IMG/VR virus record: IMGVR_UViG_3300027710_000017
Location: 29,085 to 93,084 of that record
Length of the DNA stretch: 64,000 nt
Source: a virus
Reading direction: 5' to 3' (one strand)
Position numbers and translations under genes: made by a program. The notes below the pieces were generated by a model. That model was not told the origin of the DNA and made no database searches. It saw only the letters and a list, made by a program, of their open reading frames with translations. Shown piece by piece: positions 1,403 through 61,226 of the stretch. Every line of letters starts with the position of its first letter. Positions within the stretch are counted from its first letter, which is position 1.

Positions 1403-1403
1403 T

Positions 1404-1613
1404 CTACTTGGCCTCTACCTCAGCCGATGCCTCTTTAACCTTAGAGGCTAACTTGTCCTCAACAAAAGCATAGACACGCTCAAAGGCATCTCCGATGTTC
1501 TCACCATCACGCTTGTTGTCTTGGATCTCTACGTCAATTCGTAGTGACTGAAAGTTTCCTAGATTAAGAGTATAGCCTAAAGCAACCCTTACCTTAGTTT
1601 CTTCGTTATTCAT
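1404..1613 (-). CDS. conserved phage hypothetical protein
   Basis: ORF with TLNLGNFQSLRIDV motif, tightly packed in operon. Confidence 0.75.
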   Translation of the reverse strand: MNNEETKVRVALGYTLNLGNFQSLRIDVEIQDNKRDGENIGDAFERVYAFVEDKLASKVKEASAEVEAK

Positions 1614-1625
1614 ACCCGTTTCTTT

Positions 1626-2156: not shown

Positions 2157-2163
2157 GAAAAAC

Positions 2164-2616: not shown

Positions 2617-2634
2617 TTTTCTCCTAAACTAATA

Positions 2635-3057
2635 TTATACCAGAGGTATAATCTCCGATTCGTAAATCTCTAAAGCAACGCTGCGGGTCTTAGATATTCC
2701 AGATACCTGAATCGCATACCTAAAAGACTCTGTTGCTTGGTTGATAAAGCTATAGGTGTGAACAGAAGACGATCCATGGTAAAAATAATCATCATTATCA
2801 AACTTAACAAAGATATCATATTCTGGCCTGCTCTCTTCATCTTCCCATACCACAGTTACAATATCTGGGCTTTGAATATACTTAGAATCTACTGGTGTGG
2901 GTGGTTTAGCATTTAAAGAAAAAACTGGAGACCAGGCAGAGACTCTGTTTTTGTCATCCGAAACTATCCTGTATCTAACCAGATACTTATTGTCATTAGT
3001 AACGTTGGTCAGGGATGATTTTGGAATTATTACTTTTTTAATTTCCCTGTCTGCCAC
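2635..3057 (-). CDS. minor tail protein
   Basis: Position; YLVRYRIVSDDKNRVSAWSP FN3-like motif. Confidence 0.55.
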   Translation of the reverse strand: MADREIKKVIIPKSSLTNVTNDNKYLVRYRIVSDDKNRVSAWSPVFSLNAKPPTPVDSKYIQSPDIVTVVWEDEESRPEYDIFVKFDNDDYFYHGSSSVHTYSFINQATESFRYAIQVSGISKTRSVALEIYESEIIPLV

Positions 3058-4229: not shown

Positions 4230-4768
4230 TACGAAAGCTCCTCAGAATATATTGTATCATGTAGCTCCCGAATATTGGAGATAATTTGTACCTCAACTTG
4301 CTCTTCTGGCTTTAAGTTAATTAGATCAATCACTATATCGCCAGTATTTGGCTCTACATAAACATACTCACAGGTAGAAATAGACAGCTGTGGCTCGCCT
4401 GGGGCAGTAAAGATGTAGTATCCACTGCCGCACTCTGGAGTTTTATTAGAAAGAGAGATTGCAAAATTCTTAAAGTAGTCCCTGTCTGTTCTTGACAAAG
4501 GAATAATATTGTCTGACCTATACTGATACGACAAGCCAGAAAGATTTTTGATAGGCTGATACGTCACATTTTGACCATTTATAATATCATTTCTAACAAT
4601 GTTAATTATTTCCTGGCCACCGATATCTTCAAATATCAGATCAACCATGACGTCTTCTGTTAGCGTGCTATCAGAGAAGTTTAACAACTCTGGCGTTGCA
4701 ATTTTTACAGAGCTAGATGTGCTTGAGTTATAAACTTTTTTATCTACTGATAATGGCTTAGATTCCAT
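4229..4768 (-). CDS. minor tail protein
   Basis: Translationally coupled within tail operon. Confidence 0.55.
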   Translation of the reverse strand: MESKPLSVDKKVYNSSTSSSVKIATPELLNFSDSTLTEDVMVDLIFEDIGGQEIINIVRNDIINGQNVTYQPIKNLSGLSYQYRSDNIIPLSRTDRDYFKNFAISLSNKTPECGSGYYIFTAPGEPQLSISTCEYVYVEPNTGDIVIDLINLKPEEQVEVQIISNIRELHDTIYSEELS

Positions 4769-7700
4769 TATGCTACCTCACTTAAAAATATAGACATCTC
4801 TGGACCCTCTGTAGTTCCAGAATATTCTATTTGATAAACTACAAACCTGTCAGCCTCTAAAGCTACTTGATCCACATTATCACTGTCCTTATAGTTAATC
4901 TTTACGATATCACCGAGCTGCAATATTGGCATTCCAAACACGGTAAGGCCTACGGATTTTCTTGGCTTCATGATTTTAGAAATCATCCAGGACATTAGAT
5001 TTTCTGCATCGTCATGGGACTGAATGTATGGTGCGTCTAGAGTAAAGTCTTTTTTACCATGAGTTAGTCGGCTAACCTTAATGTCTTGATATTCCTGCTT
5101 AGCTTTTGCTGTATAGCTTACCAGCTGCTGTGAATCAAACTGTGTGCTAGACAAATCACTATTTTTATCGAAGTACTCATCTACCGTTAGCTCGTGTGTC
5201 GACTGTTGGGTAAATGTTACACCCTGAATTCTTAAATAGTTGTTGCTTGTTTCGTCTAGGCTTAAAGCCGTGTCTGTTGCATTAAATATTAAGAACTCTG
5301 CACCATAAGCAGTTGCCATAAATCCAGAAGTTGTGTAGCCCTGCATCTTATTAAAGGTTGGAGAAAGCTTAGCGTACAAAGCTGGATAAGCCTTATCATA
5401 TCTTATATTAAAGTATGCGGCTTCACGCATAATTGTGCCAAACTCTTCAAAATAGATATTATATCTTGGTGGCTCTGAAGAACTGATCCCAGAAAGATAT
5501 GTTGCCTTTATTGCGCCAGTAAGTCCATACTTTCTAAATGACTCATTCATTCCAGCTTCATCTTGTAAAAAGACATCGCTTATTGGGGTGTCTAAAGCAT
5601 AAGACGTGTTTTGAGAATAGTTGTTTGATATTGCATAAACATTTTCAAACATTGCCCTTGCACCACCACGCACAAAAAGACACATATTTTTGTGTATTGG
5701 TAGCGGATCTTCGTCTACAACTGTAGCAATTAGCTTATTATTAATGTACAGGAAGAATTTTCTAGATGCTCCAATGTCCTGGTATTCAACTGCAAGATCA
5801 TATACCGTTGGCTTAGCTTCATTTGCCATCCTGTACTGCCCAGTAAAGTTTCCGTCATCTACTAGGATTTGAGCCAAACCACCATAAAGCTTTACTGGTA
5901 TTGCTTTTGTTGTTGGCCCAGTAGCTGGCTTTGCGACCTTATAAAATAATACGTTATGAATTTCATCTGCATTGTCATATGAGTTTATGTTGTCTTCAGT
6001 CAAAGCAGCGATCTCAAAGAAATATCCATTATTTGTTTCAGGATTTACCAGAATGCCGAGTCCGCCAGACGCCCCTGAAATTATAGAAGGCTGGCTTGGG
6101 TTACTTGCAGAGCCAAGGAAGTATGAAGATGACCCAATTGGAGTCTGAATACTATTAACATTATTTTCAACCTTTCCAATAATTCTCATCCTAGACCCAA
6201 AATGCTTGTACTTATCATCTAAAGGCTTATACACATATGAAATAAAGTCAGTTGGTACGTCAGAGGTGGTGAATGCTGGTCCAGTAAATACAAAAGCAGA
6301 TGACTGCATTGTTCCTGGCGCAATCGAGTCCTCCGAAATATTCTCCAACTCTGGACGATATGTCAAAAGATTTTTCAGAATTCCAGTTCTAGAAGAGTTT
6401 TGAGCTAGGGAATTGTTTATTCCTGCTGCTCCAGAAGTAACAGACTGCGTTGATGGCTTTCCAAATAGCTGAGTTCCGTCCATGACACATCCACGAACAT
6501 TTTGATTATCTGACCAATAAGAAGGCAAGCCTGCTGAGTGAACAACAGCTTTAGTGCCAAACTGCTCCCTACCATGCTTTGCAACTGCACCTTCTGCAAG
6601 CCTGGTTTCGTTATCTGTAATGACATAATTTGGCTCTGCGTATATTCTTACTCTACCAGTTGGATACATTTTTCCATTAAATGGAAGCTTTGCAAAATAT
6701 TTTTGGTAATCTCTTACGCTAGAAATCCACACTCTGCCAATACCACCAGATACAGATGTGTCTGCAGTTATTTCTCCATTAATATTTTCCTGCAATACAG
6801 TTCTTTCTACTCCAGGAATTTCAAACTCTACAGCATCATATTTTATAATTTCGCCATTTGCATAAAAGTATCCGTTATACCTTGTAATCCAATAGACACT
6901 TTCTCCAAGATCCATTGTATTATTTTGGATAGCTCCATTAACAATAACTGGTAGCTGGTCAGTAAGAGTGGTGCTTAGCGGGATTGCCCCAAGCACGAAG
7001 TTTGACTGATTATTTACAACATCATTTACAGACTTTGTATTTTCAGAGCCAGCGACTTCCCAAAGCAGTGCTGGCTTATAGATCCAAACCTTGTCCTTGT
7101 CTATCATGCTTGCCTGCCTGATTGTCCCGTAAGACCTCTGGATATACCTGGTGCTGTAGTTAATCTTACCGCCGTTGAATACCTCATCTTTTTGACTTGC
7201 TATTTCAATGATGTTTGCCAACTTGGTACTTGTTGTTTTATTACTTATTTGTCCGTCTACAGAAAAATCTTTTGACCCATAAAGAGTTAAGTCTAGCTCT
7301 CTTTCGGATTCTGAAGGTAGCATGTACTCTTTTGACATTACGACAAGATTGTTATACTCATCAAAGAACATTGCACTTTGTGTTGACACAGCTATGTCAT
7401 TTAATACTTCTGCTAAAGATTTATCTGGGGCAACAAAAAAGCTTGGAATAATTGGCTCTGAAAGATCACTCACTCTTTTAAATACGTAATTTGAAAAACC
7501 AATAGAGTCTAGTATCATTGATACGGCATAGCTTAGTGATGCATTTTGAATGAATGTCTGAGGGGCAAGCTTTGATTCAAAGTAAAAGAATAGATCCCTA
7601 AGCTCTAGCGTCACAGATCTATCTGCTGATGTTAGGTCTGGAATTTCCTCTGAGTACATAGTTTTAATTGGAATATAATAATCGATACCGCTAACATCCA

Positions 7701-9129
7701 GGATAACCTCATAGAGCTTAAACTGAATTCCCTTATTCAGATAATTTCTAACAATGCTTTTTTGATTATAAGAGCTAAAGGCTAGATCATAGTCAAATAG
7801 CGACAGTGAGCCAACCCCAGCTAAAAGTTGTCCAACTGGCATTCCACTATTTCCTAAGTCTGATGCGGATTTAGTAATCTTAAATGACTCAACCTTATCG
7901 GAAAGGTCAACGGCAAGCCTAGGAGATAGCTCAATTAGATCTAGGGTGGAATCTACCTTGTTCATTGTATCTACGACTATGCGTATTCCAGAAATCTCGT
8001 CGAACTCTCTATACTTGATAAGTCCGTCTACTGGATCTACATAGGATGCTGGATCAGTTAGGTTTGTTGCAAAATTTGTAAGCTTGTCTACCTGAGACTC
8101 TTCTAGGTACCAGCCATATTCTGGAACAAAAACCTCATAGTCTTCAGTAGACTCTATCCAAATATGATACGTACCAATGTCTGTATCTGTTTCTTTAATT
8201 AGATAAGCATAACCATTTGTGGACGTCTCTGGCAAAAAGCTTTCTGTGTAATACTCGTCTGCTTTTACAAAGATATCTCGATAGCCTTCTGGCACCATAA
8301 GGCCATAGGACAACTCAACATATCCGTCAGACTTGATAATTGCAGATCCGTCTTGCCTTGTTGAGCTAAAGTCAAAAGAAGCAGCGTCTACCCAGTCATT
8401 ATCTTTTAGGGTTTGAACCTTCCACTTTACTGGCGTAGTTTTATTTTGATCTCCAAAAAACGGATCGTTAAAAGTTCCGCCATTGCCAGAAAATGTTCCA
8501 AAGTCTATATCTCCAACATTAGTTTGCATCTTTACAACTAGCCTATTTGCTGGCAGGATATTTTTATACACTACAAATGGAGAGGCATCGTCTATGAAGT
8601 ATTGTCCATTAATTAATTTATTTGCAATACCTCGCTCAATTCCATTCTCAGTTCTGTAGGATGACCAGTACTTAAACTGATCTTCTTTATGTGACATGTA
8701 ATATCTAGGTCTTCTAATCATGTCAATGTTAGTGAAATGAGTATACTTTCCAGGAAAATATCTAAGCTTGTTAATTCCAGAGCGTGGCCTGAATTTTCCA
8801 AAACAATCTTCTAAGGAATAAAGTAGTCTTTCTTTTTCTTTTTTAGGAGTAAAAAGAATTGGAGTTTCGTCATCATCCTCAAGTCCGCCGTCTACGACAA
8901 CGTCGGCATCAGTAGCGTTTGTATAAAAATTACCAGAGTCATTTTCGTCAAATGAGGTTACTGCTAGGCCATAATCGCTAGATGGGCCCTCTGATGGACG
9001 ATATCTGTAGTTACCAATCTTTAGAATGTTTTCTGCAATATTCATATTCCATTCTGCAATGACTGCAGAATTGCTTTTAATTGTAGAGGATGTTTCTAAA
9101 TGATTTAATAATTCATCATCTTTAAACAT
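4768..9129 (-). CDS. large tail tip / baseplate hub protein
   Basis: 1453 aa, second gene after tape measure; hub-like motifs (AMFFDEYNNLVV, LQLGDIVKI). Confidence 0.75.
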   Translation of the reverse strand: MFKDDELLNHLETSSTIKSNSAVIAEWNMNIAENILKIGNYRYRPSEGPSSDYGLAVTSFDENDSGNFYTNATDADVVVDGGLEDDDETPILFTPKKEKERLLYSLEDCFGKFRPRSGINKLRYFPGKYTHFTNIDMIRRPRYYMSHKEDQFKYWSSYRTENGIERGIANKLINGQYFIDDASPFVVYKNILPANRLVVKMQTNVGDIDFGTFSGNGGTFNDPFFGDQNKTTPVKWKVQTLKDNDWVDAASFDFSSTRQDGSAIIKSDGYVELSYGLMVPEGYRDIFVKADEYYTESFLPETSTNGYAYLIKETDTDIGTYHIWIESTEDYEVFVPEYGWYLEESQVDKLTNFATNLTDPASYVDPVDGLIKYREFDEISGIRIVVDTMNKVDSTLDLIELSPRLAVDLSDKVESFKITKSASDLGNSGMPVGQLLAGVGSLSLFDYDLAFSSYNQKSIVRNYLNKGIQFKLYEVILDVSGIDYYIPIKTMYSEEIPDLTSADRSVTLELRDLFFYFESKLAPQTFIQNASLSYAVSMILDSIGFSNYVFKRVSDLSEPIIPSFFVAPDKSLAEVLNDIAVSTQSAMFFDEYNNLVVMSKEYMLPSESERELDLTLYGSKDFSVDGQISNKTTSTKLANIIEIASQKDEVFNGGKINYSTRYIQRSYGTIRQASMIDKDKVWIYKPALLWEVAGSENTKSVNDVVNNQSNFVLGAIPLSTTLTDQLPVIVNGAIQNNTMDLGESVYWITRYNGYFYANGEIIKYDAVEFEIPGVERTVLQENINGEITADTSVSGGIGRVWISSVRDYQKYFAKLPFNGKMYPTGRVRIYAEPNYVITDNETRLAEGAVAKHGREQFGTKAVVHSAGLPSYWSDNQNVRGCVMDGTQLFGKPSTQSVTSGAAGINNSLAQNSSRTGILKNLLTYRPELENISEDSIAPGTMQSSAFVFTGPAFTTSDVPTDFISYVYKPLDDKYKHFGSRMRIIGKVENNVNSIQTPIGSSSYFLGSASNPSQPSIISGASGGLGILVNPETNNGYFFEIAALTEDNINSYDNADEIHNVLFYKVAKPATGPTTKAIPVKLYGGLAQILVDDGNFTGQYRMANEAKPTVYDLAVEYQDIGASRKFFLYINNKLIATVVDEDPLPIHKNMCLFVRGGARAMFENVYAISNNYSQNTSYALDTPISDVFLQDEAGMNESFRKYGLTGAIKATYLSGISSSEPPRYNIYFEEFGTIMREAAYFNIRYDKAYPALYAKLSPTFNKMQGYTTSGFMATAYGAEFLIFNATDTALSLDETSNNYLRIQGVTFTQQSTHELTVDEYFDKNSDLSSTQFDSQQLVSYTAKAKQEYQDIKVSRLTHGKKDFTLDAPYIQSHDDAENLMSWMISKIMKPRKSVGLTVFGMPILQLGDIVKINYKDSDNVDQVALEADRFVVYQIEYSGTTEGPEMSIFLSEVA

Positions 9130-51276: not shown

Positions 51277-51372
51277 TTTATGCCACTTTTACAAGGTATT
51301 TCTATACAAACTTTTACCCTGTTTTTTGTAGGTATTTACAGTAATTGCGACACGCCCGACGCCGTGCGCCAC

Positions 51373-51392
51373 TGTGGATAACCTGTGGATAA
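51373..51392 (-). promoter_or_regulatory. two tandem perfect DnaA boxes
   Basis: TTATCCACA x2, 11-bp period. Confidence 0.7.
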
Positions 51393-51438
51393 CTCCGTTA
51401 TGATAATGTTATGAAACGCCCCGATCAGCCTCCCCAAA

Positions 51439-51460
51439 TGTCGGTGGTTTGTGATAGGGT
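51439..51460 (+). promoter_or_regulatory. PafBC/RecA-NDp-type promoter
   Basis: TGTCGG-N10-TAGGGT. Confidence 0.75.
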
Positions 51461-51490
51461 TTTAGTAAGCCAAAAGAAAGGAAACAACAA

Positions 51491-51631
51491 ATGGACAAGA
51501 TGTGTGTTTACTGTGAGAGCGTATTCTCACCTGATACTATTGTTTGCCACAACTGTAATGAGTATGATGGGATGATGCCCCTAGAGTCTGCCATCGACTA
51601 CCTCAACCTTGACCCTAACGACTTCCTATAA
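51491..51631 (+). CDS. 46-aa Zn-ribbon protein
   Basis: CVYC...CHNC; RBS AGAAAGGA. Confidence 0.7.
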   Translation: MDKMCVYCESVFSPDTIVCHNCNEYDGMMPLESAIDYLNLDPNDFL

Positions 51632-51632
51632 A

Positions 51633-51654
51633 TGTCAGAGGGTTATGCTAGGTT
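51633..51654 (+). promoter_or_regulatory. PafBC/RecA-NDp-type promoter
   Basis: TGTCAG-N10-TAGGTT. Confidence 0.72.
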
Positions 51655-51676
51655 GGAACTAACGAAAGGAAATCAA

Positions 51677-51772
51677 ATGATAACACTAACATTCGAAACT
51701 TGGGAAGAGTTTGATAACGCTATCGCTGGGATAGTATTATTGGAAACAGAACTAACAAAGGAGAGCAACTAA
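51677..51772 (+). CDS. 31-aa early protein
   Basis: RBS GAAAGGA; coupled stop/start. Confidence 0.55.
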   Translation: MITLTFETWEEFDNAIAGIVLLETELTKESN

Positions 51773-51906
51773 TGACAGTAGAGGTAATGTTCAAAGATGG
51801 TTCAGCAATTTACCCTAGCTATGACCCAGAGCACCGCAAAAGTGTCCTAGAGTTTTATGCTAATCTTTTTGACAAGGGTGAAATTATTTCTTGGAAGGTA
51901 ATCTAA
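51772..51906 (+). CDS. 44-aa early protein
   Basis: RBS AAGGAG; TAATG coupling. Confidence 0.6.
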   Translation: MTVEVMFKDGSAIYPSYDPEHRKSVLEFYANLFDKGEIISWKVI

Positions 51907-52019
51907 TGATGTTTTATAACGGATTCAACTTGCTAATTGACCTAATCTTGGTTATAGTAGCCTATGAGGTTGGTATGTATTTCGGAACTAAGCGTGTGAT
52001 TGAAAGGAATAGCAAATGA
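51906..52019 (+). CDS. 37-aa membrane peptide
   Basis: Hydrophobic core; TAATG coupling. Confidence 0.55.
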   Translation: MMFYNGFNLLIDLILVIVAYEVGMYFGTKRVIERNSK

Positions 52020-52198
52020 TGACAGAAGAAGAATTTGATGATTGGCTAGATGATGTTTATCCAACTTACCAAATTGCTGGGGTGACTCTTTACCCCTCGC
52101 AAATGCTAAAGAACTGCGACCCTATCGCATACAGAATTGCGTTGTCAGAGTGTGAAGAAAGAGAAGAAGAGTGGGAGGGTTATTTTGACAATAAGTGA
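52016..52198 (+). CDS. small acidic phage protein
   Basis: FDDWLD...SQMLKNCDPIAYR; RBS GAAAGGA. Confidence 0.75.
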   Translation: MMTEEEFDDWLDDVYPTYQIAGVTLYPSQMLKNCDPIAYRIALSECEEREEEWEGYFDNK

Positions 52199-52280
52199 AT
52201 TAGAACAACTGATTTTCCAAATTGACCTAATGCTAACTGAAGATGTTGGCGAATTATTTACAACACCAGAGGAGAACTAA

Positions 52281-52415
52281 ATGGAATTGTTTTTGATTTT
52301 TGTAATCGTTGGTATTGCTATTTTTGTTGGAACTTCTTTAGCTGCTGTTTTGTTTTTGCTACAAGAAAATAACAGACTTGGCGAAGAGCTAGAAAAGAAT
52401 CAGCCACCCTTCTAA
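52281..52415 (+). CDS. 44-aa membrane protein ending in QPPF
   Basis: TM helix; RBS GAGGAG. Confidence 0.65.
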   Translation: MELFLIFVIVGIAIFVGTSLAAVLFLLQENNRLGEELEKNQPPF

Positions 52416-52506
52416 AACGACACGCCCGAGAGGGTGCGCCACATCCTGGGACAGATGTCAAATGTTTACGAAGAGTTTTATGATCGCCCCAAATTCTGTC
52501 CAGAAA

Positions 52507-52528
52507 TGTCAGTGGTTTATGCTAAGAT
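52507..52528 (+). promoter_or_regulatory. PafBC/RecA-NDp-type promoter (leaderless)
   Basis: TGTCAG-N10-TAAGAT with ATG 6 nt downstream. Confidence 0.75.
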
Positions 52529-52534
52529 TATTTT

Positions 52535-52687
52535 ATGTTGAACAGAACTAATGAGGCAAGACGCAAGGCAGAGAGCCAGGCGTTGTTTCAGTCTATGCTA
52601 AAAGCTCCTCACTTGGTTCAGACCCCAAAGAAATACAAAGGTAGCCGTCAGTCTAACAAGACTAAGGCAATAAAGGAGAGCGAATGA
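52535..52687 (+). CDS. 50-aa basic protein
   Basis: MLNRTNEARRK...KKYKGSR; leaderless. Confidence 0.65.
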   Translation: MLNRTNEARRKAESQALFQSMLKAPHLVQTPKKYKGSRQSNKTKAIKESE

Positions 52688-52836
52688 TTCTACAAGGCTT
52701 GATTCACTATGTATGTGAAGACTGTAATAGGTTTGTTCACTCTAACACAGTCTATTCCTATGACCTCAAAAATGTCTGTGGCAGATGTTATGCTGTTCAG
52801 GCAGGCCATCCATCAACAAGAAAGGTAAGTAAATGA
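52684..52836 (+). CDS. 50-aa Zn-finger protein
   Basis: CEDC...CGRC; RBS AAGGAG. Confidence 0.6.
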   Translation: MILQGLIHYVCEDCNRFVHSNTVYSYDLKNVCGRCYAVQAGHPSTRKVSK

Positions 52837-52933
52837 TAGATTGGGAGCCAACAATAAATGAAGAAGCTATCCTAGCCCTAACTGGCGAAGAGGTAGTAGC
52901 AATTATGGAACTACTAGAGAAAGCAGGATACTA

Positions 52934-53200
52934 ATGGGATTCGCAACTGCAGTTGGACTTACAGATACAGACCTAACCCTATCAGACCAAATTAGCATTC
53001 ACTTTAGTAGCAACTGTTATCCACCTATCCCCAAGGTAATGATTCCAGTTGCAGTTGCAGCTATTGACGCTTATTGGGAAGAAGACTATGACAGACTAAT
53101 TACCCTGCCAGAAGGCGTAGAGTTTAGGACAGGTGCAACAAGCGTGTCTGCCTCACAAGCTATTGAGTCTCTTAGGCTTGACGCTTGGTGTATGGAATAG
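52934..53200 (+). CDS. hypothetical early protein
   Basis: HFSSNCYPPIP...ITLPEGV motif. Confidence 0.75.
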   Translation: MGFATAVGLTDTDLTLSDQISIHFSSNCYPPIPKVMIPVAVAAIDAYWEEDYDRLITLPEGVEFRTGATSVSASQAIESLRLDAWCME

Positions 53201-53284
53201 ACTTGACAAGTCCACCGAAAGGTGGGCGCACCAGATCTTGATCCATAAGTCAAATTAAGAAACGTTTAAGAATGCCCTTGAAAA

Positions 53285-53306
53285 TGTCCTAGGGTAATGG
53301 TATAGT
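53285..53306 (+). promoter_or_regulatory. PafBC-type variant promoter with overlapping TTGAAA -35
   Basis: TGTCCT-N10-TATAGT. Confidence 0.65.
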
Positions 53307-53333
53307 TTTACCATACAAAGAAAGCAGGCCCCT

Positions 53334-54050
53334 ATGCTAATTCGTTCCAAAGACCGAAAGGTTACTAATGCAGTATCTCCAAATGGTAAAACGCCAACTA
53401 TTGCGAATACTTTTGGCCTTCCTTCTGGGAAAAGTTATTCCTGTCCTGGAGCAACAAGTGTATGCGAGAAAATCTGTTATGCAGGCAAGCTCGAAAAAGT
53501 ATTCAAGGGAGTAAAAGCTGTACTGTTGACAAACTGGGAGCAACTAAAAGACGCCAATCAACAACAAATGGAAGCGCTTATCTACCAAATGATAGATGAG
53601 TTTGAAAAGGACTGTGATAAAAAGAATGCTAAAAAACTATTTCGTATCCATTGGGACGGTGACTTTTTTAGTGATACTTACACAATGGCTTGGAAGAATG
53701 TAATCCTTGCATTCCCTCAAATTCAGTTCTGGGTATACACGAGGTCAGACTTTGCAGTTCCAATTCTTACTGGTATTGATAACTTAGCGCTTTACTTCTC
53801 TACCGATGACGACAACTGGCAACTGGCCAGTGAATTAAAAAAGACTAACGGTGTGAAGCTTGCTTATCTTGCTAACAACTTTGCAATGGGTAAAGAGCGC
53901 ATGTTGTCTATCACTGTCAAGTCCGCCATCCCATGTCCTGAAAATAATAAAAAGATTCCGCTCATTAGCGAAAAGGGTTCCGCTTGTGTTACCTGTTCGC
54001 AATGTGTCTTTGCTCGTAATGACATCCTGTTCAGTGCAAGTAAAACATAA
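53334..54050 (+). CDS. Gp88-like Cys-cluster (radical-SAM-like) protein
   Basis: SCPGATSVCEKICYA, FRIHWDGDFF, WVYTR, C-terminal CP...CxxCxxC. Confidence 0.8.
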   Translation: MLIRSKDRKVTNAVSPNGKTPTIANTFGLPSGKSYSCPGATSVCEKICYAGKLEKVFKGVKAVLLTNWEQLKDANQQQMEALIYQMIDEFEKDCDKKNAKKLFRIHWDGDFFSDTYTMAWKNVILAFPQIQFWVYTRSDFAVPILTGIDNLALYFSTDDDNWQLASELKKTNGVKLAYLANNFAMGKERMLSITVKSAIPCPENNKKIPLISEKGSACVTCSQCVFARNDILFSASKT

Positions 54051-54075
54051 TCTCATGCTATAGGGGCATGTAAAC

Positions 54076-54140
54076 TGTAGGTCCCTTGTTATATCCTTTC
54101 TTAGGGATCTACACGTCCTGGCCACGACGTCAAACTGGCC
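54076..54140 (+). ncRNA. anti-SD-loop hairpin plus H-type pseudoknot
   Basis: Stem GTAGGTCCCT/AGGGATCTAC with loop ...TCCTTTCT; then ACGTC-CT-GGCCA-C-GACGT-CAAAC-TGGCC. Confidence 0.6.
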
Positions 54141-54232
54141 ACAAAAGCGGCGCACCAGATTTGCCAGGGAAAGTAAAGCTTATGAAGATAACGATTTCCC
54201 CCCCCGAATCGTTATAAAAAGATGGTTGATAA

Positions 54233-54254
54233 TGTCGGTGGTATAGGCTACAAT
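54233..54254 (+). promoter_or_regulatory. PafBC/RecA-NDp-type promoter with TTGATA -35
   Basis: TGTCGG-N10-TACAAT. Confidence 0.78.
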
Positions 54255-54320
54255 GGTGGTATCAACAAAAGTTGGTAATCAAATAGACAAATCCTAGCTC
54301 TGCTAGGTGATAGGAAGCAA

Positions 54321-54473
54321 ATGTCAAACGCAACCCTAACTGTTGGCTCACAGTTCACTACTCTAAAGAGTGGTGTATCAGGCACAATTCAGGAAGTAGT
54401 AGAAAACAAGAACGGCTCTTTCCGAGTCCGTCTTGATGTAAACGGACAGCCACGCTGGACTACTGTAAAGTAA
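54321..54473 (+). CDS. 50-aa SH3-like protein
   Basis: Manual translation MSNATLTVGSQF...RVRLDVNGQPRWTTVK. Confidence 0.7.
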   Translation: MSNATLTVGSQFTTLKSGVSGTIQEVVENKNGSFRVRLDVNGQPRWTTVK

Positions 54474-54552
54474 TCTAGTTAGTGTTAGTGGCGTTAGACT
54501 ACATAAAAGGGTGAATCAGAGTCTATTAGAAATACCCTGCCACTTTCACAAA

Positions 54553-54574
54553 TGTCATACCCCACCCCTATAAT
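54553..54574 (+). promoter_or_regulatory. PafBC-type variant promoter
   Basis: TGTCAT-N10-TATAAT. Confidence 0.65.
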
Positions 54575-54607
54575 AGTAATACCCTAACAAGAAAAGGAAA
54601 ACAAACT

Positions 54608-55051
54608 ATGGCAAGAAGCCTGTCAGTAAAAATCCCAACCGCAAAACTAATCGCAGATGTAGAGCAGTCTATCGCTAAGATAGATACCGCTATTGCTGAG
54701 TATGCTGATAAGCGTAAGCAGTATGAAACAGAAATCAAGCAGTATGACCTAGACATTGTTGCTCACGCTATCAAGGCTATGTCAGACCCAAGTAATGTTG
54801 GAACAGAACACGGCTCTCTAGTTCGTGTATCAAGAGGATACAACGGAAACATTTCTGTTGATTTTGATGTTGAGGCACTTGGACTACCAGCAAAGCCAGT
54901 AGAGCCAGCAAGACCAAATGAGAAAAGTTATTTTGGTCGTGAGTATGCTACACGCAAAGAAATCCTAGAGCGTAATCTTCGTATCCTAAAGATGACAACT
55001 CAAGAGGAGATTTCAGCAAGTTCTTACTCTGCTGTTATTGACCTTATCTAA
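54608..55051 (+). CDS. hypothetical coiled-coil early protein
   Basis: RBS AGAAAAGGA. Confidence 0.8.
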   Translation: MARSLSVKIPTAKLIADVEQSIAKIDTAIAEYADKRKQYETEIKQYDLDIVAHAIKAMSDPSNVGTEHGSLVRVSRGYNGNISVDFDVEALGLPAKPVEPARPNEKSYFGREYATRKEILERNLRILKMTTQEEISASSYSAVIDLI

Positions 55052-55091
55052 CTTAGGGAAAGACCCCTGCCTAGCAGGTATAACGCCCGAA

Positions 55092-55119
55092 GCAACCTAA
55101 GCAAGTTGTAAAACTGCTT
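55092..55119 (+). ncRNA. H-type pseudoknot
   Basis: GCAAC-CT-AAGCA-A-GTTGT-AAAAC-TGCTT. Confidence 0.55.
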
Positions 55120-55249
55120 CCACTCCCCTCCAAAAGCTGAAGGATCTTTGATCCACAAATACTGTGAGGGGAAAAAGTGGGCGCACCGCATTTTCGTTAC
55201 CAAACTGTTATTTATGATGACTAATTATTTTGCCCCGAATCGTTGACAA

Positions 55250-55271
55250 TGTCGGAGGGTAGCCCTATAAT
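55250..55271 (+). promoter_or_regulatory. PafBC/RecA-NDp-type promoter with TTGACA -35
   Basis: TTGACA-A-TGTCGG-N10-TATAAT. Confidence 0.8.
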
Positions 55272-55310
55272 TAGACTATTAGTAATCCAACCCTAAAGAA
55301 AGTAGATAAC

Positions 55311-56321
55311 ATGGCACATTTGCTAGAATCCGTAAACGGAGAAACCGCATTTGCTTCACTCAGAGAGCCAGCTTGGCATGGTCTAGGAACTGTATTCACT
55401 GAGGAAGTTTCAACAGCCGAGATGTTGAAGAAAGCTAAACTAAATAACTGGAATGTTCGCTTGGAAGATGTAGAGATTCCTACTGGCATGGATTCAGACA
55501 AGGGCTACTCTTTCGTAGTTCGTGATAACCCATTCACTAAGGGCAACAAGGACATTCTTGGTGTTGTTGGTGAGCGTTATGTTCCGCTTCAGAATGAGGA
55601 CTTGTTTGATTTTGCTGATAACATTCTAGACGCTGGTGGACGCTGGGAAACCGCTGGTTCCATCAAGGGTGGTCGAGTTGTATTCGGTTCTCTAGCTCTT
55701 GAGCGTGAAACAGTTCTTGACCCTAACGGCGTATCAGATAAGGTAAACAGTTATCTTCTAGTAAACACTAGCCATGACGGCTCTATCGCAATTCAGGCAA
55801 GCATTACACCTGTCCGAGTTGTATGTGCCAACACTCTAAACTTGGCACTTGGTAATCGTGGTCGTGGTGGTTCGGTAAAGCAGTCGTTCAAGATTCGCCA
55901 CACCCAAACTGCTAACGGCAAAGTTCAAGCAGCTCGTGAGGCTCTTGGCTTGGCTAATGCTTACTTAGATGAGTTCGACAAGATGGCAAACGAGATGATT
56001 CAGAATGAAGTTAGCAAGGCTAAGTTTGATGAAATTGTTTTGGCATTGTATCCAAAGCCTGAGAAAGATTCTAAGGGTGCTGTCAAGAAGTGGGAAACTA
56101 AACTAGACATCATCAACGGCATTTATGTTGGACAGTATAACGACACTATTGCTGGAACAGCTTGGGGTGTTGCTAACGCTCTAACTGAAAGACTAGACTG
56201 GTATCGTTCGGCAAGGGGTGGCAACAACGAATCCATTCTTGCTTCCGCTTCTGGGTTTGACCCAATGATAAACGCTGAGAAGAATAGAATCTTCAAGGCA
56301 GTTCAACTGGCAACAGCATAA
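55311..56321 (+). CDS. DUF932 / TIGR03299-family phage protein
   Basis: MAH...PAWHGLG...LQNE...ETAGSIKGG...SHDGS...TPVRVVCANTL...RHT. Confidence 0.9.
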   Translation: MAHLLESVNGETAFASLREPAWHGLGTVFTEEVSTAEMLKKAKLNNWNVRLEDVEIPTGMDSDKGYSFVVRDNPFTKGNKDILGVVGERYVPLQNEDLFDFADNILDAGGRWETAGSIKGGRVVFGSLALERETVLDPNGVSDKVNSYLLVNTSHDGSIAIQASITPVRVVCANTLNLALGNRGRGGSVKQSFKIRHTQTANGKVQAAREALGLANAYLDEFDKMANEMIQNEVSKAKFDEIVLALYPKPEKDSKGAVKKWETKLDIINGIYVGQYNDTIAGTAWGVANALTERLDWYRSARGGNNESILASASGFDPMINAEKNRIFKAVQLATA

Positions 56322-56326
56322 GCAAA

Positions 56327-56353
56327 AGTCCTGGGCATGACTAAAAACTGCCC
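56327..56353 (+). ncRNA. H-type pseudoknot
   Basis: AGTC-CT-GGGCA-T-GACT-AAAAAC-TGCCC. Confidence 0.6.
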
Positions 56354-56446
56354 ATCACCTATACTTGACACAGGATCAAAAACGTGGCGCACCTGGATAA
56401 CGAAACTATAACAAGTTTACGATACAGTTTAAGAATCCCTTGAAAA

Positions 56447-56468
56447 TGTCGGTGGCTACTGGTAAAAT
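56447..56468 (+). promoter_or_regulatory. PafBC/RecA-NDp-type promoter
   Basis: TGTCGG-N10-TAAAAT. Confidence 0.78.
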
Positions 56469-56492
56469 CTAGGTATAAAGAAAGGAATTCAA

Positions 56493-56615
56493 ATGGACGA
56501 GCAAGCAGAAGAAATTCGTGAGGCATTAGCTGAGTACTATGCCAACCCAGAAGACTACACCCTAGAAGACTTCGAAGAAATCTTTCAGGATAGGGACCCA
56601 TTCGAATTTCTATAA
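56493..56615 (+). CDS. 40-aa acidic protein
   Basis: RBS AGAAAGGA. Confidence 0.65.
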   Translation: MDEQAEEIREALAEYYANPEDYTLEDFEEIFQDRDPFEFL

Positions 56616-56637
56616 TGTCGGTGGTTCATGGTAAAAT
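56616..56637 (+). promoter_or_regulatory. PafBC/RecA-NDp-type promoter
   Basis: TGTCGG-N10-TAAAAT. Confidence 0.78.
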
Positions 56638-56661
56638 CCAAATAGACAACGAAAGGAAAAC

Positions 56662-56859
56662 ATGTCGCATTTACTAAATAACATTGGATACGTTTCTTAT
56701 GATGGAAACTATGGAGCAGAAGCGGACGTACTTGTGTTCGATACTGATTCACTTACCCTGCAGCAATGGGAAACCCTAGGTGAGCTAGATGACAACTCTA
56801 GGTATGACTATGTCGAAGCTATTTTTGCAGGTAAAGACCTATCTGAATGGGAGGGCTAA
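56662..56859 (+). CDS. hypothetical early protein
   Basis: RBS GAAAGGA. Confidence 0.7.
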   Translation: MSHLLNNIGYVSYDGNYGAEADVLVFDTDSLTLQQWETLGELDDNSRYDYVEAIFAGKDLSEWEG

Positions 56860-57212
56860 TGTTAGACGTATTGGAAATGGATTACAGGATTGATGAGTAT
56901 ACCAATGAGGCAAAGGGCATTGCTTGGGATACATGTCATAAAATCTATGTACTCATGGACGAGGAGCAAGTAGCGCTTCAAAGAAGTTATGGCTATGGTG
57001 ATGAGAATGACCCAGATAGCCTAATCACAAGTGAGCAGATGACTGGTGATGAAATGAGAAAGCAAGTCATGGACTGGTATCAGAAGTCTTGTGGCCTAAG
57101 ATTTATTTCAGCTGTTTCAACCGACACCAGGTTTGGTGATGACGGCTGGGTTCACATCATTAGTCAGTTTGAAGATACTGATGAAGATGAAGATGAGGAT
57201 GAAGACCTGTAG
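56859..57212 (+). CDS. hypothetical early protein
   Basis: WDTCHKIY...SCGLRFI, acidic tail; TAATG coupling. Confidence 0.75.
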   Translation: MLDVLEMDYRIDEYTNEAKGIAWDTCHKIYVLMDEEQVALQRSYGYGDENDPDSLITSEQMTGDEMRKQVMDWYQKSCGLRFISAVSTDTRFGDDGWVHIISQFEDTDEDEDEDEDL

Positions 57213-57273
57213 CGCATTCCCTTACTTCCTTTCTGGAATGTGCTACCGTCCTAGCTATGACGTAAAACTGGCT
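57211..57273 (+). ncRNA. anti-SD-loop hairpin plus H-type pseudoknot
   Basis: AGCGCATTCC/GGAATGTGCT stem, loop CTTACTTCCTTTCT; CGTC-CT-AGCTA-T-GACG-TAAAAC-TGGCT. Confidence 0.6.
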
Positions 57274-57354
57274 TTCCAGCAGGCGCACCACAATAATGGA
57301 TCAGTGTCAACAGTTTAAGAAGAATTAAGATTACTCCCCGAAACCCCTTGATAA

Positions 57355-57376
57355 TGTCAGTGGGTAGTAGTAAAAT
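57355..57376 (+). promoter_or_regulatory. PafBC/RecA-NDp-type promoter
   Basis: TGTCAG-N10-TAAAAT. Confidence 0.78.
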
Positions 57377-57404
57377 GATACTACCCGAAAGAAAGGAACC
57401 CCCA

Positions 57405-57905
57405 ATGGGAACCAGAAACCTAACAGTAGTAAAGAACAAAGCAGGACAAACCAAGATTGCTCAATACGGACAATGGGACGGATACCCAAGCTATTCAGGT
57501 ATTCAAGCTCTAGAGTTTCTAAGAGATGAAGGCAACCAAGCCTTACTACAAGCTAAGCTAGACCTTGTCCAGTTTGTTGGTGATGAGGAAGTAGATACGC
57601 TGTATAAGCAGTATGAGTCTACTGATTGGGAGAATAAGGAATTCCTAAACGCATACCCTGGCCTACACAGAGATACTGGTATTGACATCCTAAAGGTAGT
57701 TGCCAATGCTACTGCCACTATCAAGAGTGTAGATAATACAGAGTTTGCTAAGGATGAACTATTTTGTGAGGGTGTCTATGAGGTAGACTTCTCTACTAAT
57801 AAGTTTATTACTGTCTATGACAACAAGGTTGTTGAGTATGACTTGGATTCCTTGCCTAGTGATTCGGATTACCTAGCAGCGTTTGAGGTGGAACAGCTTG
57901 TTTGA
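57405..57905 (+). CDS. conserved phage protein (MGTR...QWDGYP family)
   Basis: MGTRNL...AQYGQWDGYPS; RBS AGAAAGGA. Confidence 0.8.
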   Translation: MGTRNLTVVKNKAGQTKIAQYGQWDGYPSYSGIQALEFLRDEGNQALLQAKLDLVQFVGDEEVDTLYKQYESTDWENKEFLNAYPGLHRDTGIDILKVVANATATIKSVDNTEFAKDELFCEGVYEVDFSTNKFITVYDNKVVEYDLDSLPSDSDYLAAFEVEQLV

Positions 57906-58073
57906 TAATCTAGATACCAAGTATGCCACAGGAAACATCGCAAAGGATGTTGAGTTTATCAAAGATAACCTTAGTATTGATGACAAAGAGTTCTTTAGAA
58001 GGGCTATGGCTAACATAATGTCTGAGGGTAATGCTAGAATTGACCTACTTACTGGAGAGGAACTGGAACAGCT

Positions 58074-58268
58074 ATGATGAAACTAACAAGCACAGACCTA
58101 AAGACTTGGCAGGTAGAGTATTCTGCAGCCTACTGGGTAGAAGCTACAAGTGAAGATGAAGCTATTGAAAAGGCTATGGAACAACACGCTGATTTGCCTG
58201 ACGGTAGCTGGGAAGCAATGATTGACCCCTATGATAGCAACAACTTCAATACCCTAGGAGAAAAGTAA
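58074..58268 (+). CDS. small acidic protein (VEA.SE.EA motif)
   Basis: Motif shared with 58673 ORF. Confidence 0.65.
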   Translation: MMKLTSTDLKTWQVEYSAAYWVEATSEDEAIEKAMEQHADLPDGSWEAMIDPYDSNNFNTLGEK

Positions 58269-58462
58269 TGGCAATGGCAAAGATAAGTATTGTCCTAGAG
58301 TATGACCTAGAAAACCATTTTCAAGAATTAGCGTATAAGCACCTAAAGACCGATACTATTATTGACGAACTAGAAGATAATGTGTATGAGGATTTACTAG
58401 ACCTAATGCGTGGAGATAGATTGCGTTCTTGGTCTTACTATGAGATAGTAGATGGGAAATAA
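58268..58462 (+). CDS. hypothetical early protein
   Basis: RBS AGGAG, coupled. Confidence 0.65.
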   Translation: MAMAKISIVLEYDLENHFQELAYKHLKTDTIIDELEDNVYEDLLDLMRGDRLRSWSYYEIVDGK

Positions 58463-58609
58463 TGGAACACGAATGCGTCCCACTTCTTGAAGGAGATGCC
58501 TGGTGTCTATGTGGAAAGGACCTGGACACCTAACCAGATCCCCCGAAAGGGGTGCGCCGATTCTTTTATAGATAATCTTATTAAACATAAAAATGTAATT
58601 AAGAAGCTC

Positions 58610-58638
58610 TTGACTTTTTCCCCAGATTGTGGGACAAT
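58610..58638 (+). promoter_or_regulatory. sigma70/SigA-type promoter
   Basis: TTGACT-N17-GACAAT with TGTGG. Confidence 0.55.
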
Positions 58639-58672
58639 TGAGTATCAAAGCCCCAACCCCATAGGAGATAAA

Positions 58673-58849
58673 TTGCCTTTATACAAAGTTCAAAGAGAAT
58701 ACACCAACTGGGAAGAGATTACAGTTGAAGCAGAATCAGAAGCGGAAGCCCTAGACCTCATGGAAGATGAAAGTATGTGGGAATACGCAACTGATGCCAG
58801 TACGTACAACTACACTGGTGAGACTTGGATTGGAGACTACGATGAGTAA
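58673..58849 (+). CDS. small acidic protein (VEAESEAEA)
   Basis: TTG start after RBS AGGAGA. Confidence 0.65.
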   Translation: MPLYKVQREYTNWEEITVEAESEAEALDLMEDESMWEYATDASTYNYTGETWIGDYDE

Positions 58850-58942
58850 ACACATGCACTACTTTAGTTATGGAGCCTGCATTCATTGTGGCAAGGTAGT
58901 CAATAAAGGATTGGGCGTAGACCTATTAAGAGGGAAGAGAGT

Positions 58943-59176
58943 ATGAGCCAGATTTATGTAGACAAGAAGCCTAGTGTAAAGGATACTACTTGGACCAGGA
59001 TCTTTCATTACAATACCGCCCAGGTTATGGAATCGGATCGCTACTATGACTTCTATAAGGCTGTAGTTGAAGGAGAGCGACCAAAGTATTTCTTTGGAGA
59101 ATCTGCATGGATGAATTGCCAACGATATGTAGTTGACAAAATTGGCATGCAGGGCTATAATGTATTTAGAAGATAA
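58943..59176 (+). CDS. hypothetical protein
   Basis: ORF; KYFFGESAW motif. Confidence 0.65.
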   Translation: MSQIYVDKKPSVKDTTWTRIFHYNTAQVMESDRYYDFYKAVVEGERPKYFFGESAWMNCQRYVVDKIGMQGYNVFRR

Positions 59177-59197
59177 CCCCGATAGAAAGCAGACCCC

Positions 59198-59740
59198 ATG
59201 CATGTATTACAATGGATAGCTACAGAAGCTGATAATAAAGATGAGGCCTATCGTAGAGTAGAAGATACTCTGCAGGAAATGCTAGGCGACTTTGAATTAC
59301 CAACCCTTACTTGGTATGACTGGTTTGTCGTAGGTGGCGGACGTTGGAATACTAAGGATGATGAAAGCGCTACTGCTGCCTACACTGAAGGTAAAACTAA
59401 TCTAATTATCTCCTATGATGAAAGTCCAGAACCTTTTCTAACTGGTATCCTAAGAGCATTGGAAGACCGTAAAGCTGAGTTTGATAACTATGCCAAAGAC
59501 GTAGACAGCAGTGTAATAGATAAGATAATCAAAGACTATAACCCTAAAGAGTTTGACTTCCCTGCATTTCAGTCTCTTTATGTTATCAAGAAGGTTATTG
59601 ACATGGCCTATGGCACATGGGATTTCAATGCATACTTTTATGACATGGTCAATGATACAACTACCCCAAAGTATTTGTATGAATCTATTGACAAAGGCAA
59701 CAAAAACTGGTATCTTGTACCTGTAGACTTTCATTTCTAA
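59198..59740 (+). CDS. conserved phage protein
   Basis: MH...WYDWFVVGGGRW...LVPVDFHF. Confidence 0.8.
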   Translation: MHVLQWIATEADNKDEAYRRVEDTLQEMLGDFELPTLTWYDWFVVGGGRWNTKDDESATAAYTEGKTNLIISYDESPEPFLTGILRALEDRKAEFDNYAKDVDSSVIDKIIKDYNPKEFDFPAFQSLYVIKKVIDMAYGTWDFNAYFYDMVNDTTTPKYLYESIDKGNKNWYLVPVDFHF

Positions 59741-59752
59741 GAGAGGACCCCA

Positions 59753-60160
59753 ATGCTAAAGTTTCCAGAAGTAAAGTATGTTGAGCTAACTTGGAAAGAG
59801 TTTGAGCAACAGTTTAGACCTATCAAAAATCACTTCCGTAAAGACCCAGACGAGATTATGTTTGAGACCTATGGTGAGGAGCTAGACTTTGTTGTATCTA
59901 AAGTAGAGGACAATGTTGTTTGGACCTATGCTGATGGTGATTACTGTTCCTATGTTAGTGGAGGCTATCACTATGTAAACAGGATTGGCTATTACATTAC
60001 CGAGGTCCCTATGGAGAAAGACACAGAGTATCAGATTATCGTAAGCACCGAAGAAGAGTGTGAGTGTTACAACGAGGAAGGTTATGAAGATGGAGAAATG
60101 GGCAGAGCCGATTGTGAAAAATGCGAGGGGTATGGACTTGTCACTAACTACGTCGACTAG
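59753..60160 (+). CDS. hypothetical protein with C-terminal Zn finger
   Basis: GYHYVNRIGYYITE; CEKCEGYG. Confidence 0.75.
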   Translation: MLKFPEVKYVELTWKEFEQQFRPIKNHFRKDPDEIMFETYGEELDFVVSKVEDNVVWTYADGDYCSYVSGGYHYVNRIGYYITEVPMEKDTEYQIIVSTEEECECYNEEGYEDGEMGRADCEKCEGYGLVTNYVD

Positions 60161-60497
60161 AAACCAAAACAAAGATAAGACGCATATTGTCTATGACCTA
60201 AACATCTACCAGCTAGAGCAGTTGGACTCAGATGGTGAGTACAGACATTTTGGCCCATGGTATATACATGTCTATGAATATGAAAACAGTAACATCGAAG
60301 AAGTTACAGCTCCAATAGAGTTAACTCAGGAGGAGTACGATAGTCTTATTGCTAATGACCCATACTTTGACGAGCCAGACGTATGGTATGGCCTAGAAGG
60401 ATTTCTATTTGAAAAGTGGGACCAGCTGGACGATCGTTTAAAGATGGTATTTGAATGTCTACCCAAGTACAAGGAAGATGCATTAGTAGATAACTAA
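60138..60497 (+). CDS. hypothetical acidic protein
   Basis: 3' part of track ORF 60060..60497; start uncertain. Confidence 0.55.
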   Translation: MSLTTSTRNQNKDKTHIVYDLNIYQLEQLDSDGEYRHFGPWYIHVYEYENSNIEEVTAPIELTQEEYDSLIANDPYFDEPDVWYGLEGFLFEKWDQLDDRLKMVFECLPKYKEDALVDN

Positions 60498-60599
60498 ATA
60501 AGGATTGATACGTCGAGCCTAGCTCCGTATCATGGATAACTGGTTAGGGGTAGCCAGGGTATCCGAACGGGGTGTCAGGACTCTTTCCTACTTTCAGTC

Positions 60600-60628
60600 T
60601 TGACACCCCAACTAATTTTTGATACAAT
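60600..60628 (+). promoter_or_regulatory. sigma70/SigA-type promoter
   Basis: TTGACA-N17-TACAAT, with the -35 lying in the 3' arm of a 14-bp hairpin. Confidence 0.7.
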
Positions 60629-60647
60629 GTCATAGGAGAATAATACA

Positions 60648-60857
60648 ATGAGGCACTTGAAACCAACGAAAGAACTAAGGGTAGCTGTAAAAATGTCAGA
60701 CCTTGTCAATGACCTAACGCTAGACCTAGACCAAGTTGGAACATACATAGCAACTAACAACGCTACCACTTACAGACGAATTATGGAAGTTGCTGATTCG
60801 GCTAGGTATGAAAAAGAGCAAATGTGGAAGGACAATAATGACGACAACCTTTTCTAA
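60648..60857 (+). CDS. hypothetical protein
   Basis: RBS AGGAG. Confidence 0.7.
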   Translation: MRHLKPTKELRVAVKMSDLVNDLTLDLDQVGTYIATNNATTYRRIMEVADSARYEKEQMWKDNNDDNLF

Positions 60858-61113
60858 CAAGTGTGAAATACTTGGAGAACTTTGGATGGACTACAGAGAA
60901 GACGAAGAGTTCCAAGACTTTGTGGAATACAATGACTTGGGATTGCCATTAGCATATATGGTTGCTAGTGGAATCATAGCTACACCAACAGAGAAGGCAG
61001 AGGACATTGTAAACGAAACCTTTGACCTATTCCTAGGCTCTATGAGTATCAAAGACATTGGCTTCGAAACTTTGCCAGATGTGTTTGATGTAGCAGCGAA
61101 CCCACCAGAGTAA
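60838..61113 (+). CDS. hypothetical protein
   Basis: KCEILGELW...YNDLGLPLAY. Confidence 0.75.
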   Translation: MTTTFSNKCEILGELWMDYREDEEFQDFVEYNDLGLPLAYMVASGIIATPTEKAEDIVNETFDLFLGSMSIKDIGFETLPDVFDVAANPPE

Positions 61114-61226
61114 AACCAGGGATCTGGCTTCGGCCAGAAACTTGGCGCACCACATCTTTGTCCATTTGTCAAGGGTATTACGATAACAATTTGATTACGA
61201 TGGATCATATTTTTCCCCAGAATATA

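Follow-up and report, generated by a model that had tools for sequence, protein, structure and literature searches.

Lineage-specific 8-bp words at the early-gene junctions of freshwater actinophages, the candidate core of a boundary module resembling promoter-early stem-loops

Introduction

The promoter-early stem-loops (PeSLs) of T4-type phages (Arbiol 2010, PMC2839356; Comeau 2014, PMC4122927) are composite elements made of a stem-loop and an early sigma-70-type promoter, placed between small early open reading frames (ORFs) of unknown function. They are repeated many times within one region, their stem-loop sequences vary between phage lineages (PMC4122927), and it is at the modules that relatives differ by insertions, deletions, and rearrangements. 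We describe here a comparable junction in a 64,000-nucleotide stretch of viral DNA (IMG/VR record IMGVR_UViG_3300027710_000017, positions 29,085 to 93,084; the whole stretch is called the window, and its own numbering is used for it throughout), which carries an 8-mer, GGCGCACC/GGTGCGCC (pattern GGYGCRCC; hereafter the word), between the cassettes of its early gene block. All the features just listed for PeSLs recur at these junctions: a stem-loop lies directly upstream of an early promoter in the intergenic spacers, many copies are spread among small variable ORFs, and rearrangements are found at the modules. The differences lie in the host and the phage group, the window coming from a large tailed, siphovirus-like freshwater actinophage whose portal is closest to those of Streptomyces BE-cluster phages (47% identity) and not from a T4-type myovirus; in the conserved unit, which is the 8-bp word after the hairpin and not the stem; in the location of the word at the -10 position of flanking -35-like hexamers; and in its switching in concert between close relatives.

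Two other kinds of element share features with these junctions. The stoperators of Cluster A mycobacteriophages (PMC6550527, PMC9283540) are, like the words described here, short intergenic sites present in many copies in an actinophage, uniform within a genome and different between lineages. They are contiguous asymmetric sites of 13-14 bp, oriented with transcription and read by a co-evolving repressor, whereas the two parts of the present junctions are 15 bp apart, their orientation is mixed on the coding strand and can flip at orthologous junctions, and neither a co-varying protein nor an integrase was found. The stoperator of phage L5 is made up of a variable half and TGTCAAG, which is complementary to a -35 hexamer; the junctions have these same two ingredients. 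Symmetric bidirectional promoters (Warman/Grainger; PMC12825309) have -35 hexamers of opposite strands on either side of a shared -10, at promoter spacing, and part of the junctions have this layout, hexamers being present on both sides at 16 of the 169 sites compared and on one side at 70; unlike in those promoters, the center is GC-rich and lineage-specific and not TAnnnT, so that RNA polymerase with the housekeeping sigma should not open the word. Composite early junction modules and multi-copy lineage-specific sites are both known kinds of element. What appears to be new is the switchable 8-bp word, its fixed location, a dead -10 flanked symmetrically by -35 hexamers, and its concerted rewriting without a co-varying phage gene.

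Results

Within the window, 8 exact matches to GGYGCRCC were found where chance predicts 0.98, and 0 of 100 shuffles reached 8. All 8 matches are confined to an early block of ~10 kb, from 52433 to 61144, and a search of the whole 93,084-bp contig (40.5% GC) found the exact word nowhere outside these 8 early-block copies. The word stands as GGCGCACC at 53225..53232, 54149..54156, 55180..55187, 56386..56393, 57282..57289, and 61144..61151, and as GGTGCGCC on the plus strand at 52433..52440 and 58551..58558. Together with a copy carrying one mismatch, CGTGCGCC, at 51363..51370, the block holds 9 word junctions in 10 kb. A first, sequence-only reading of this DNA had placed the word at nine cassette junctions and in far more copies than chance would give, and both statements held. 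The near-copy, identical in the related loci L012, L022, and L029, occupies the first junction, where minus- and plus-strand gene blocks diverge. The copy at 56386 lies 3' of the DUF932 gene and its pseudoknot, and the one at 61144 occupies the final junction of the plus-strand early block.

Every word site lies 3' of an ORF end and 5' of an early promoter, 17-128 nt past the stop codon and 52-76 nt ahead of the TGTC box of the next promoter. Since the word follows stop codons and six further candidate promoter boxes of the early block lack it, it marks the ends of transcription units and not promoters as such. The elements of the module follow one another in a set order: the stop codon, a pseudoknot or tetraloop hairpin, the word, a 15-nt spacer (often with GATC), TGTCAAG, two TTAMGA repeats, and the next early promoter.

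At six word copies of the window, exactly 17 bp separate a -35-like hexamer from the final six bases of the word, and the end of the spacer is TGG. On the minus strand, TTGACA-N15-word is found at 52433 (hexamer at 52456..52461), 57282 (57305..57310), and 61144 (61167..61172), TTGACT-N15-word at 53225 (53248..53253), and TTTACT-N15-word at 54149 (54172..54177), this last hexamer being TTGACT in L012 and L029; on the plus strand, TTGACA-N15-word is found at 56386 (56365..56370). The sequence-only reading had described a -35 hexamer, a 17-bp spacer ending in TGG like that of the phage's extended -10 promoters, and a GC-rich word replacing the -10, and all six cases were found again as described. 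It had overlooked a plus-strand TTGACA at 53203..53208, 16 nt before the word, and 53225 is the only window site flanked by hexamers on both sides. The sites at 51363, 55180, and 58551 have no flanking -35-like hexamer. Where a sigma-70-type promoter would have its -10, 17 bp past the -35, the sequence is CGCACC or TGCGCC and not TAnnnT. Over the whole genome, GGCGCACC is the most frequent 8-mer 14-16 nt downstream of any TTGAC[AT], a position held by 5 of its 8 copies.

The same geometry was then examined in relatives. A search of IMG/VR with the DUF932 protein gave 109 related stretches, the best 80 of which were kept as loci (68-92% identical at the protein level, 36-43% GC) and analyzed along with 21 whole genomes. 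A non-redundant set of 169 junction sites was drawn from 30 of the loci; as the words were picked by enrichment, only their flanks serve as a test of the geometry. The -35-like hexamers accumulate at three start offsets, -21 (32 sites) and -20 (19 sites) on the plus strand and +23 (27 sites) on the minus strand, against a background of ~0.3 per offset. Hexamers flank the word on both sides at 16 sites, upstream only at 43, downstream only at 27, and not at all at 83. The layout conserved across the family is TTGACA-N15-word-N15-TGTCAA, with two-fold symmetry. Where -35-like hexamers lie 15 bp away on one or both sides, the word sits at what would be the shared -10 of a symmetric scaffold resembling a bidirectional promoter. 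Conservation of the spacing in relatives had been proposed as a check by the sequence-only reading, and this pile-up of hexamers shows that the spacing is kept.

The letters of the word, in contrast to its place, are specific to the lineage. GGCGCACC is multi-copy only in L012, L022, and L029, and occurs as GGGGCGCAC(C) in L039 and L014; in the 15 relatives searched for it, GGCGCACC/GGTGCGCC has 0-2 copies per genome, which equals background. Across the family there are at least 15 distinct words, uniform within a genome, differing by lineage and occupying the same junction position. The GC-rich words of other relatives include GGCTAGCC, GGCCGACC/GGTCGGCC, GGGGCCCC, GGGGCGGCC, GGCGAGCC/GGCTCGCC, and GGTCGAC(C/A), to which GGCGCGGCC, GGTCGGGC, GCTGCGGCC, GCCCWGGGC, and GGGGTACC can be added. 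In G001, a complete genome of 124.5 kb, all 8 unique GGCTAGCC sites fall within one 9-kb stretch, and the same word is absent from four other genomes. Hence, the motif stands as it had been described from the window, but not as a fixed signal, each lineage having its own word.

Within a lineage, the word is well kept. The window phage is collinear with L012, L029, and L022 at ~82% DNA identity, and the word is unaltered at 7 of the 9 junctions, with a one-base change at the other two (GGGGCGCC and GGGGCGCCCC, the latter at the junction that is 55180 in the window); these variants give a lineage consensus of about GGNGCNCC. The seven unaltered sites amount to 56 unchanged positions at 18% divergence, for which our own arithmetic gives 0.817^56, or ~1e-5. 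This comparison indicates that the word is under purifying selection.

Between lineages, the change can be complete. G007 and G015 are the closest pair of genomes (88% median protein identity), with collinear early regions that share 89% identity over 7.5 kb. All 8 orthologous junctions nevertheless differ between them, being GGCTCGCC/GGCGAGCC in G007 and GGTCGAC(C/A) in G015, and the adjoining spacers and TGTCAAG are kept despite the change of word. G004, at only 72% median protein identity, has the word of G007. On these alignments, the word is evidently rewritten in concert at all junctions. Between G004 and G007, which share the word, it is inverted at two orthologous junctions while the flanks are kept, and in most genomes, non-palindromic words stand either way round on the coding strand. 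The inversion at orthologous junctions suggests recognition as double-stranded DNA and speaks against a reading that is directional, like that of a -10, or made at the RNA level.

It is at the word junctions that relatives lose their common gene order. In 31 loci, 400 pairwise synteny breaks, which are not independent events, lie near a word. The upstream blocks stop at or before the word and the downstream blocks begin after it, and in 83% of the 400 breaks the word lies inside the unaligned gap between the two blocks.

A tetraloop hairpin whose 3' arm ends on the first G's of the word is present at 70 of the 169 sites, against 27 at a control offset, and the loop is GAAA in 27 of these 70. 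Examples on the plus strand of the window are the hairpin CCACC-GAAA-GGTGG at 53212..53225, whose 3' arm runs into the word, and CTGGC-TTCG-GCCAG at 61124..61137, which has a UUCG tetraloop and precedes the last word. A CCCC-GAAA-GGGG hairpin stands before the word at 58551, and the word at 52433 forms the 3' arm of a hairpin with an upstream CGACACGCCC motif. RNA folding gave a pairing probability of 0.8-0.9 only for the 2 bases before the word and the first 2 bases of the word, the remainder being at background. A terminator scan found no canonical intrinsic terminator at any junction, the word standing in the place of the U-tract, and an Rfam scan gave one sub-threshold chance match only. 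At the junction sites of the relatives and of the window, GGCGTGTC is found at about -35 of the word, the two TTAMGA repeats at about +30 and +40, and the promoter box at +50 to +90.

Discussion

We tentatively favor reading the junction as a PeSL-like boundary module whose core would be a lineage-specific site for a putative reader of double-stranded DNA, at the -10 position of a promoter-like scaffold, the whole serving as an insulator, roadblock, or gated element and as a junction for cassette exchange. The word would be recognized in its double-stranded form by a sequence-specific factor, which is probably not a conserved phage protein and could be encoded by the host or by a phage gene whose product is small or non-homologous. 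On the hexamers, RNA polymerase with the housekeeping sigma would dock but fail to melt the GC word; such docking without opening is plausible. The likeliest job of the module would be that of a boundary element, a roadblock or insulator and possibly a gated cryptic promoter, keeping strongly promoted cassettes apart, and cassette exchange would also take place there, as it does at the PeSLs of T4-type phages.

Several observations weigh against this reading, among them the outcome of the search for a reader. Co-variation with the word was sought through the identity of early-locus protein families, through strict clusters exclusive to a word group, through the 21 whole genomes, through tblastn in the triad G004/G007/G015, and through column-wise specificity in alignments. 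No conserved phage protein of at least 50 aa tracks the word, whether by whole-protein identity, group-exclusive presence, or alignment columns, a negative that is low in power because several genomes are fragments and ORFs below 50 aa were ignored in the whole-genome tests. Fragmentary genomes, 44-73% complete, enter into three of the four same-word genome pairs. The form of some words is a further difficulty: several are not palindromes (GGCGAGCC, GGTCGGGC) and fit poorly with a simple homodimer, and the more asymmetric ones are biased in their coding-strand orientation (7:0 and 10:3). Finally, with about half of the sites (83 of the 169) having no flanking hexamer at all, the promoter-like scaffold would be optional.

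The genes that do track the word in the G004/G007/G015 triad encode a glycosyltransferase, a 2OG-Fe(II) oxygenase, and ORFs of unknown function, none of them a DNA binder. They look like host-interaction genes, so that a host-encoded reader is possible, on the strength of this one triad. The glycosyltransferase, of the GlcNAc type, and the oxygenase are encoded at 89628-90542 and 110167-110754 of G007 (L124, L125); both are common to the two GGCGAGCC phages and divergent in the otherwise closer G015. Another lead was a 60-aa Cys/His early protein, 98% identical in the two GGCGAGCC phages, G015 instead having an unrelated 69-aa CxxC..CxxH protein; it was dropped, as the 69-aa protein is absent from the other GGTCGAC phages. 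The word was also considered as a motif over-represented across the host genome, in the manner of Chi or uptake sequences, and this was rejected too, since its frequency in candidate host genomes is no higher than 14-67 copies per Mb and exceeds the control by a factor of 4-5 at the most.

A possible, if rather unlikely, alternative is that there is no trans-acting reader and that the word is the core of a recombination junction of the PeSL kind, homogenized as gene conversion or microhomology-mediated exchange between junctions keeps its copies identical, with a GC block that only clamps the foot of the terminator hairpin. The synteny breaks at junctions would follow directly, as would the lack of a co-varying protein; the stem-loops of T4-type PeSLs also differ between phage pairs (PMC4122927), and the first two G's of the word are part of the hairpin stem. 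However, homogenization would have to affect 8-10 bp only and leave the flanking spacers orthologous and site-specific, and the fixed 15-bp distance to the -35-like hexamers, the quasi-palindromic form, and the orientation flips would be left unexplained. Recombination by a dedicated enzyme, at sites of the lox, att, or attC kind, finds no cognate partner: tyrosine (PF00589) and serine (PF00239) recombinases had no match in G000, the genome of the window phage (82% complete). It is also quite unlikely that the junctions are cryptic promoters, middle-phase or antisense, at which host RNA polymerase would use the -35 and a phage factor would recognize and open the GC word in place of the -10. 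Such promoters would account for the optimal 17-bp spacing, for the TGG at the end of the window spacers, a feature shared with the phage's genuine extended -10 promoters, and for the bidirectional layout, but not for the orientation of the word, mixed at single-hexamer sites and flipped between orthologues, nor for the half of the sites without a hexamer; a GC-rich 8-mer is moreover hard to melt, no co-varying protein was found, and Sigma70_r4 had no match in G000, at the same 82% completeness. This missing match, a word insensitive to orientation, and the lack of a co-varying phage protein together weaken the re-specified sigma that the sequence-only reading had offered.

The DNA of phage T5 carries site-specific nicks, and the words might similarly be programmed nick or cut sites for a phage or host endonuclease, an explanation that we consider improbable; the further step, in which the breaks would feed single-stranded DNA to PafBC, is pure conjecture. 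The length and quasi-palindromic form of the word do resemble those of endonuclease and methyltransferase sites, its specificity differs by lineage, its function would be independent of orientation, and the adjoining promoters resemble the PafBC type (PMC8635444). Yet neither a nuclease nor a methyltransferase was found to co-vary with the word, and eight or nine breaks in 10 kb would fragment the early region. Highly improbable, finally, is an action of the word in RNA, as a signal for 3'-end formation, termination, or processing directly after the hairpin. In its favor, GNRA and UUCG tetraloops are characteristic of RNA, the U-tract is replaced by the word at junctions that lack canonical terminators, and asymmetric words are biased in orientation. 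A signal in RNA would, however, hardly flip at orthologous junctions or occur in both coding-strand orientations in most genomes; the symmetric DNA geometry also places hexamers on the non-coding side, and Rfam gave no match.

If the word does have a reader, as in the boundary module that we favor, a more far-reaching version can be formulated, which we hold to be unlikely: the word would be a rapidly switchable 8-bp code, specified by the host or the phage, that gates bidirectional-promoter-like docking sites without a -10 at every early-unit boundary and is rewritten in concert when the reader changes. One possibility for the reader of such a code is a strain-variable host factor, for example a defense or modification enzyme, which the phage would use as a host-specific switch. 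Such a code, if true, would represent a principle of regulation that has not been described in the early regions of phages.

The junctions matter beyond the choice of a reading. In a large uncultured family of freshwater actinobacterial phages, the host-takeover genes are organized by one conserved junction design, whose central 8 bases behave as a changeable password. A reader, should there be one, would show how these phages insulate or time early transcription and how a recognition code switches at eight or more sites together; if there is none, the words would offer a clear natural example of very short sequences that evolve in concert at recombination junctions. Either way, they are practical markers for cassette limits and for the grouping of phages.

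Further features of the junctions and of the phage

The early promoters that follow words by 52-76 nt have the form TTGAYA-a-TGTCRGTG-N8-TAnnnT and span 51439..57382 on the plus strand, with TGTC boxes at 51439, 52507, 53285, 54233, 55250, 56447, and 57355. In the stretch 51439-60655, TGTC boxes are found at these seven positions and at 51633, 52773, 54553, 56616, 58019, and 60628. The promoters thus combine a canonical -35 (TTGAYA) with a TGTCRGTG-N8-TAnnnT core, and the core matches the PafBC/RecA-NDp type, which has been described without a -35 (PMC8635444). Between the downstream hexamer and the next promoter, the TTAAGA/TTACGA repeats form a pair ~10-11 nt apart (e.g., window 53254-53275), and they have the look of an element that binds a protein or activates from upstream. 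At 118 of the 169 junction sites, a GATC is found no more than 40 nt from the word, in most cases in one of the 15-nt spacers.

A second motif, ACGGCGTGTCG/CGACACGCC, is kept family-wide and is found at 52418-52426 and 51348-51356 of the window. It lies either 2-3 nt ahead of the upstream TTGACA or in the 5' arm of the word-ending hairpin. The first word is immediately followed, at 51373..51393 on the plus strand, by two TGTGGATAA repeats that resemble DnaA boxes (consensus on the other strand, with the reverse complement TTATCCACA), and at some junctions a pair of TGTGGATAA boxes replaces the downstream hexamer. The combination of word and TGTGGATAA pair is kept in relatives that have other words (L007 at 4797, L057 at 3674 and 4953, L071 at 2445). 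The pair at the first junction may be a replication origin or a DnaA-control site. At 55180, the word is followed by GTTACCA-N4-GTTATTT repeats.

The pseudoknot next to the word at 56386 is a small H-type structure at 56328-56356, also present 3' of the DUF932 gene in L001-L039. Its stem is GTC/GAC, and its loop, CUGGGCAU, pairs with a downstream CUGCCCA; relatives show the compensatory changes GAGCA/TGCTC, AGGCA/TGCCT, and AAGCA/TGCTT. G001, the record behind L006 and L007, belongs to the IMG/VR class with direct terminal repeats, and its site positions repeat at a 116,023-bp offset. The repeat, at 1-8517 and 116024-124540 (~8.5 kb by arithmetic), includes part of the early cassette block, so that the early block may lie in or at the terminal repeat.

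The stretch from 51.3 to 61.6 kb of the window is a plus-strand block of small ORFs. A PHROGs scan of 20 early ORFs left 18 without a match and linked the other 2 to families of unknown function only, and a Pfam scan of eight early ORFs gave matches only to GP88 and DUF932. A megablast of the region against 50,697 phage records gave no match, and no tRNA was found in the window. The nearest cellular relatives of the phage's ribonucleotide reductase are those of freshwater Actinomycetota, for example Rhodoluna and Nanopelagicus. A ribonucleotide reductase 86% identical to that of the phage is encoded on L187, a 23-kb contig (JBIPLL010000671.1) in the bin of a Beijerinckiaceae metagenome-assembled genome; L187 is probably a phage contig wrongly placed in a bacterial bin.

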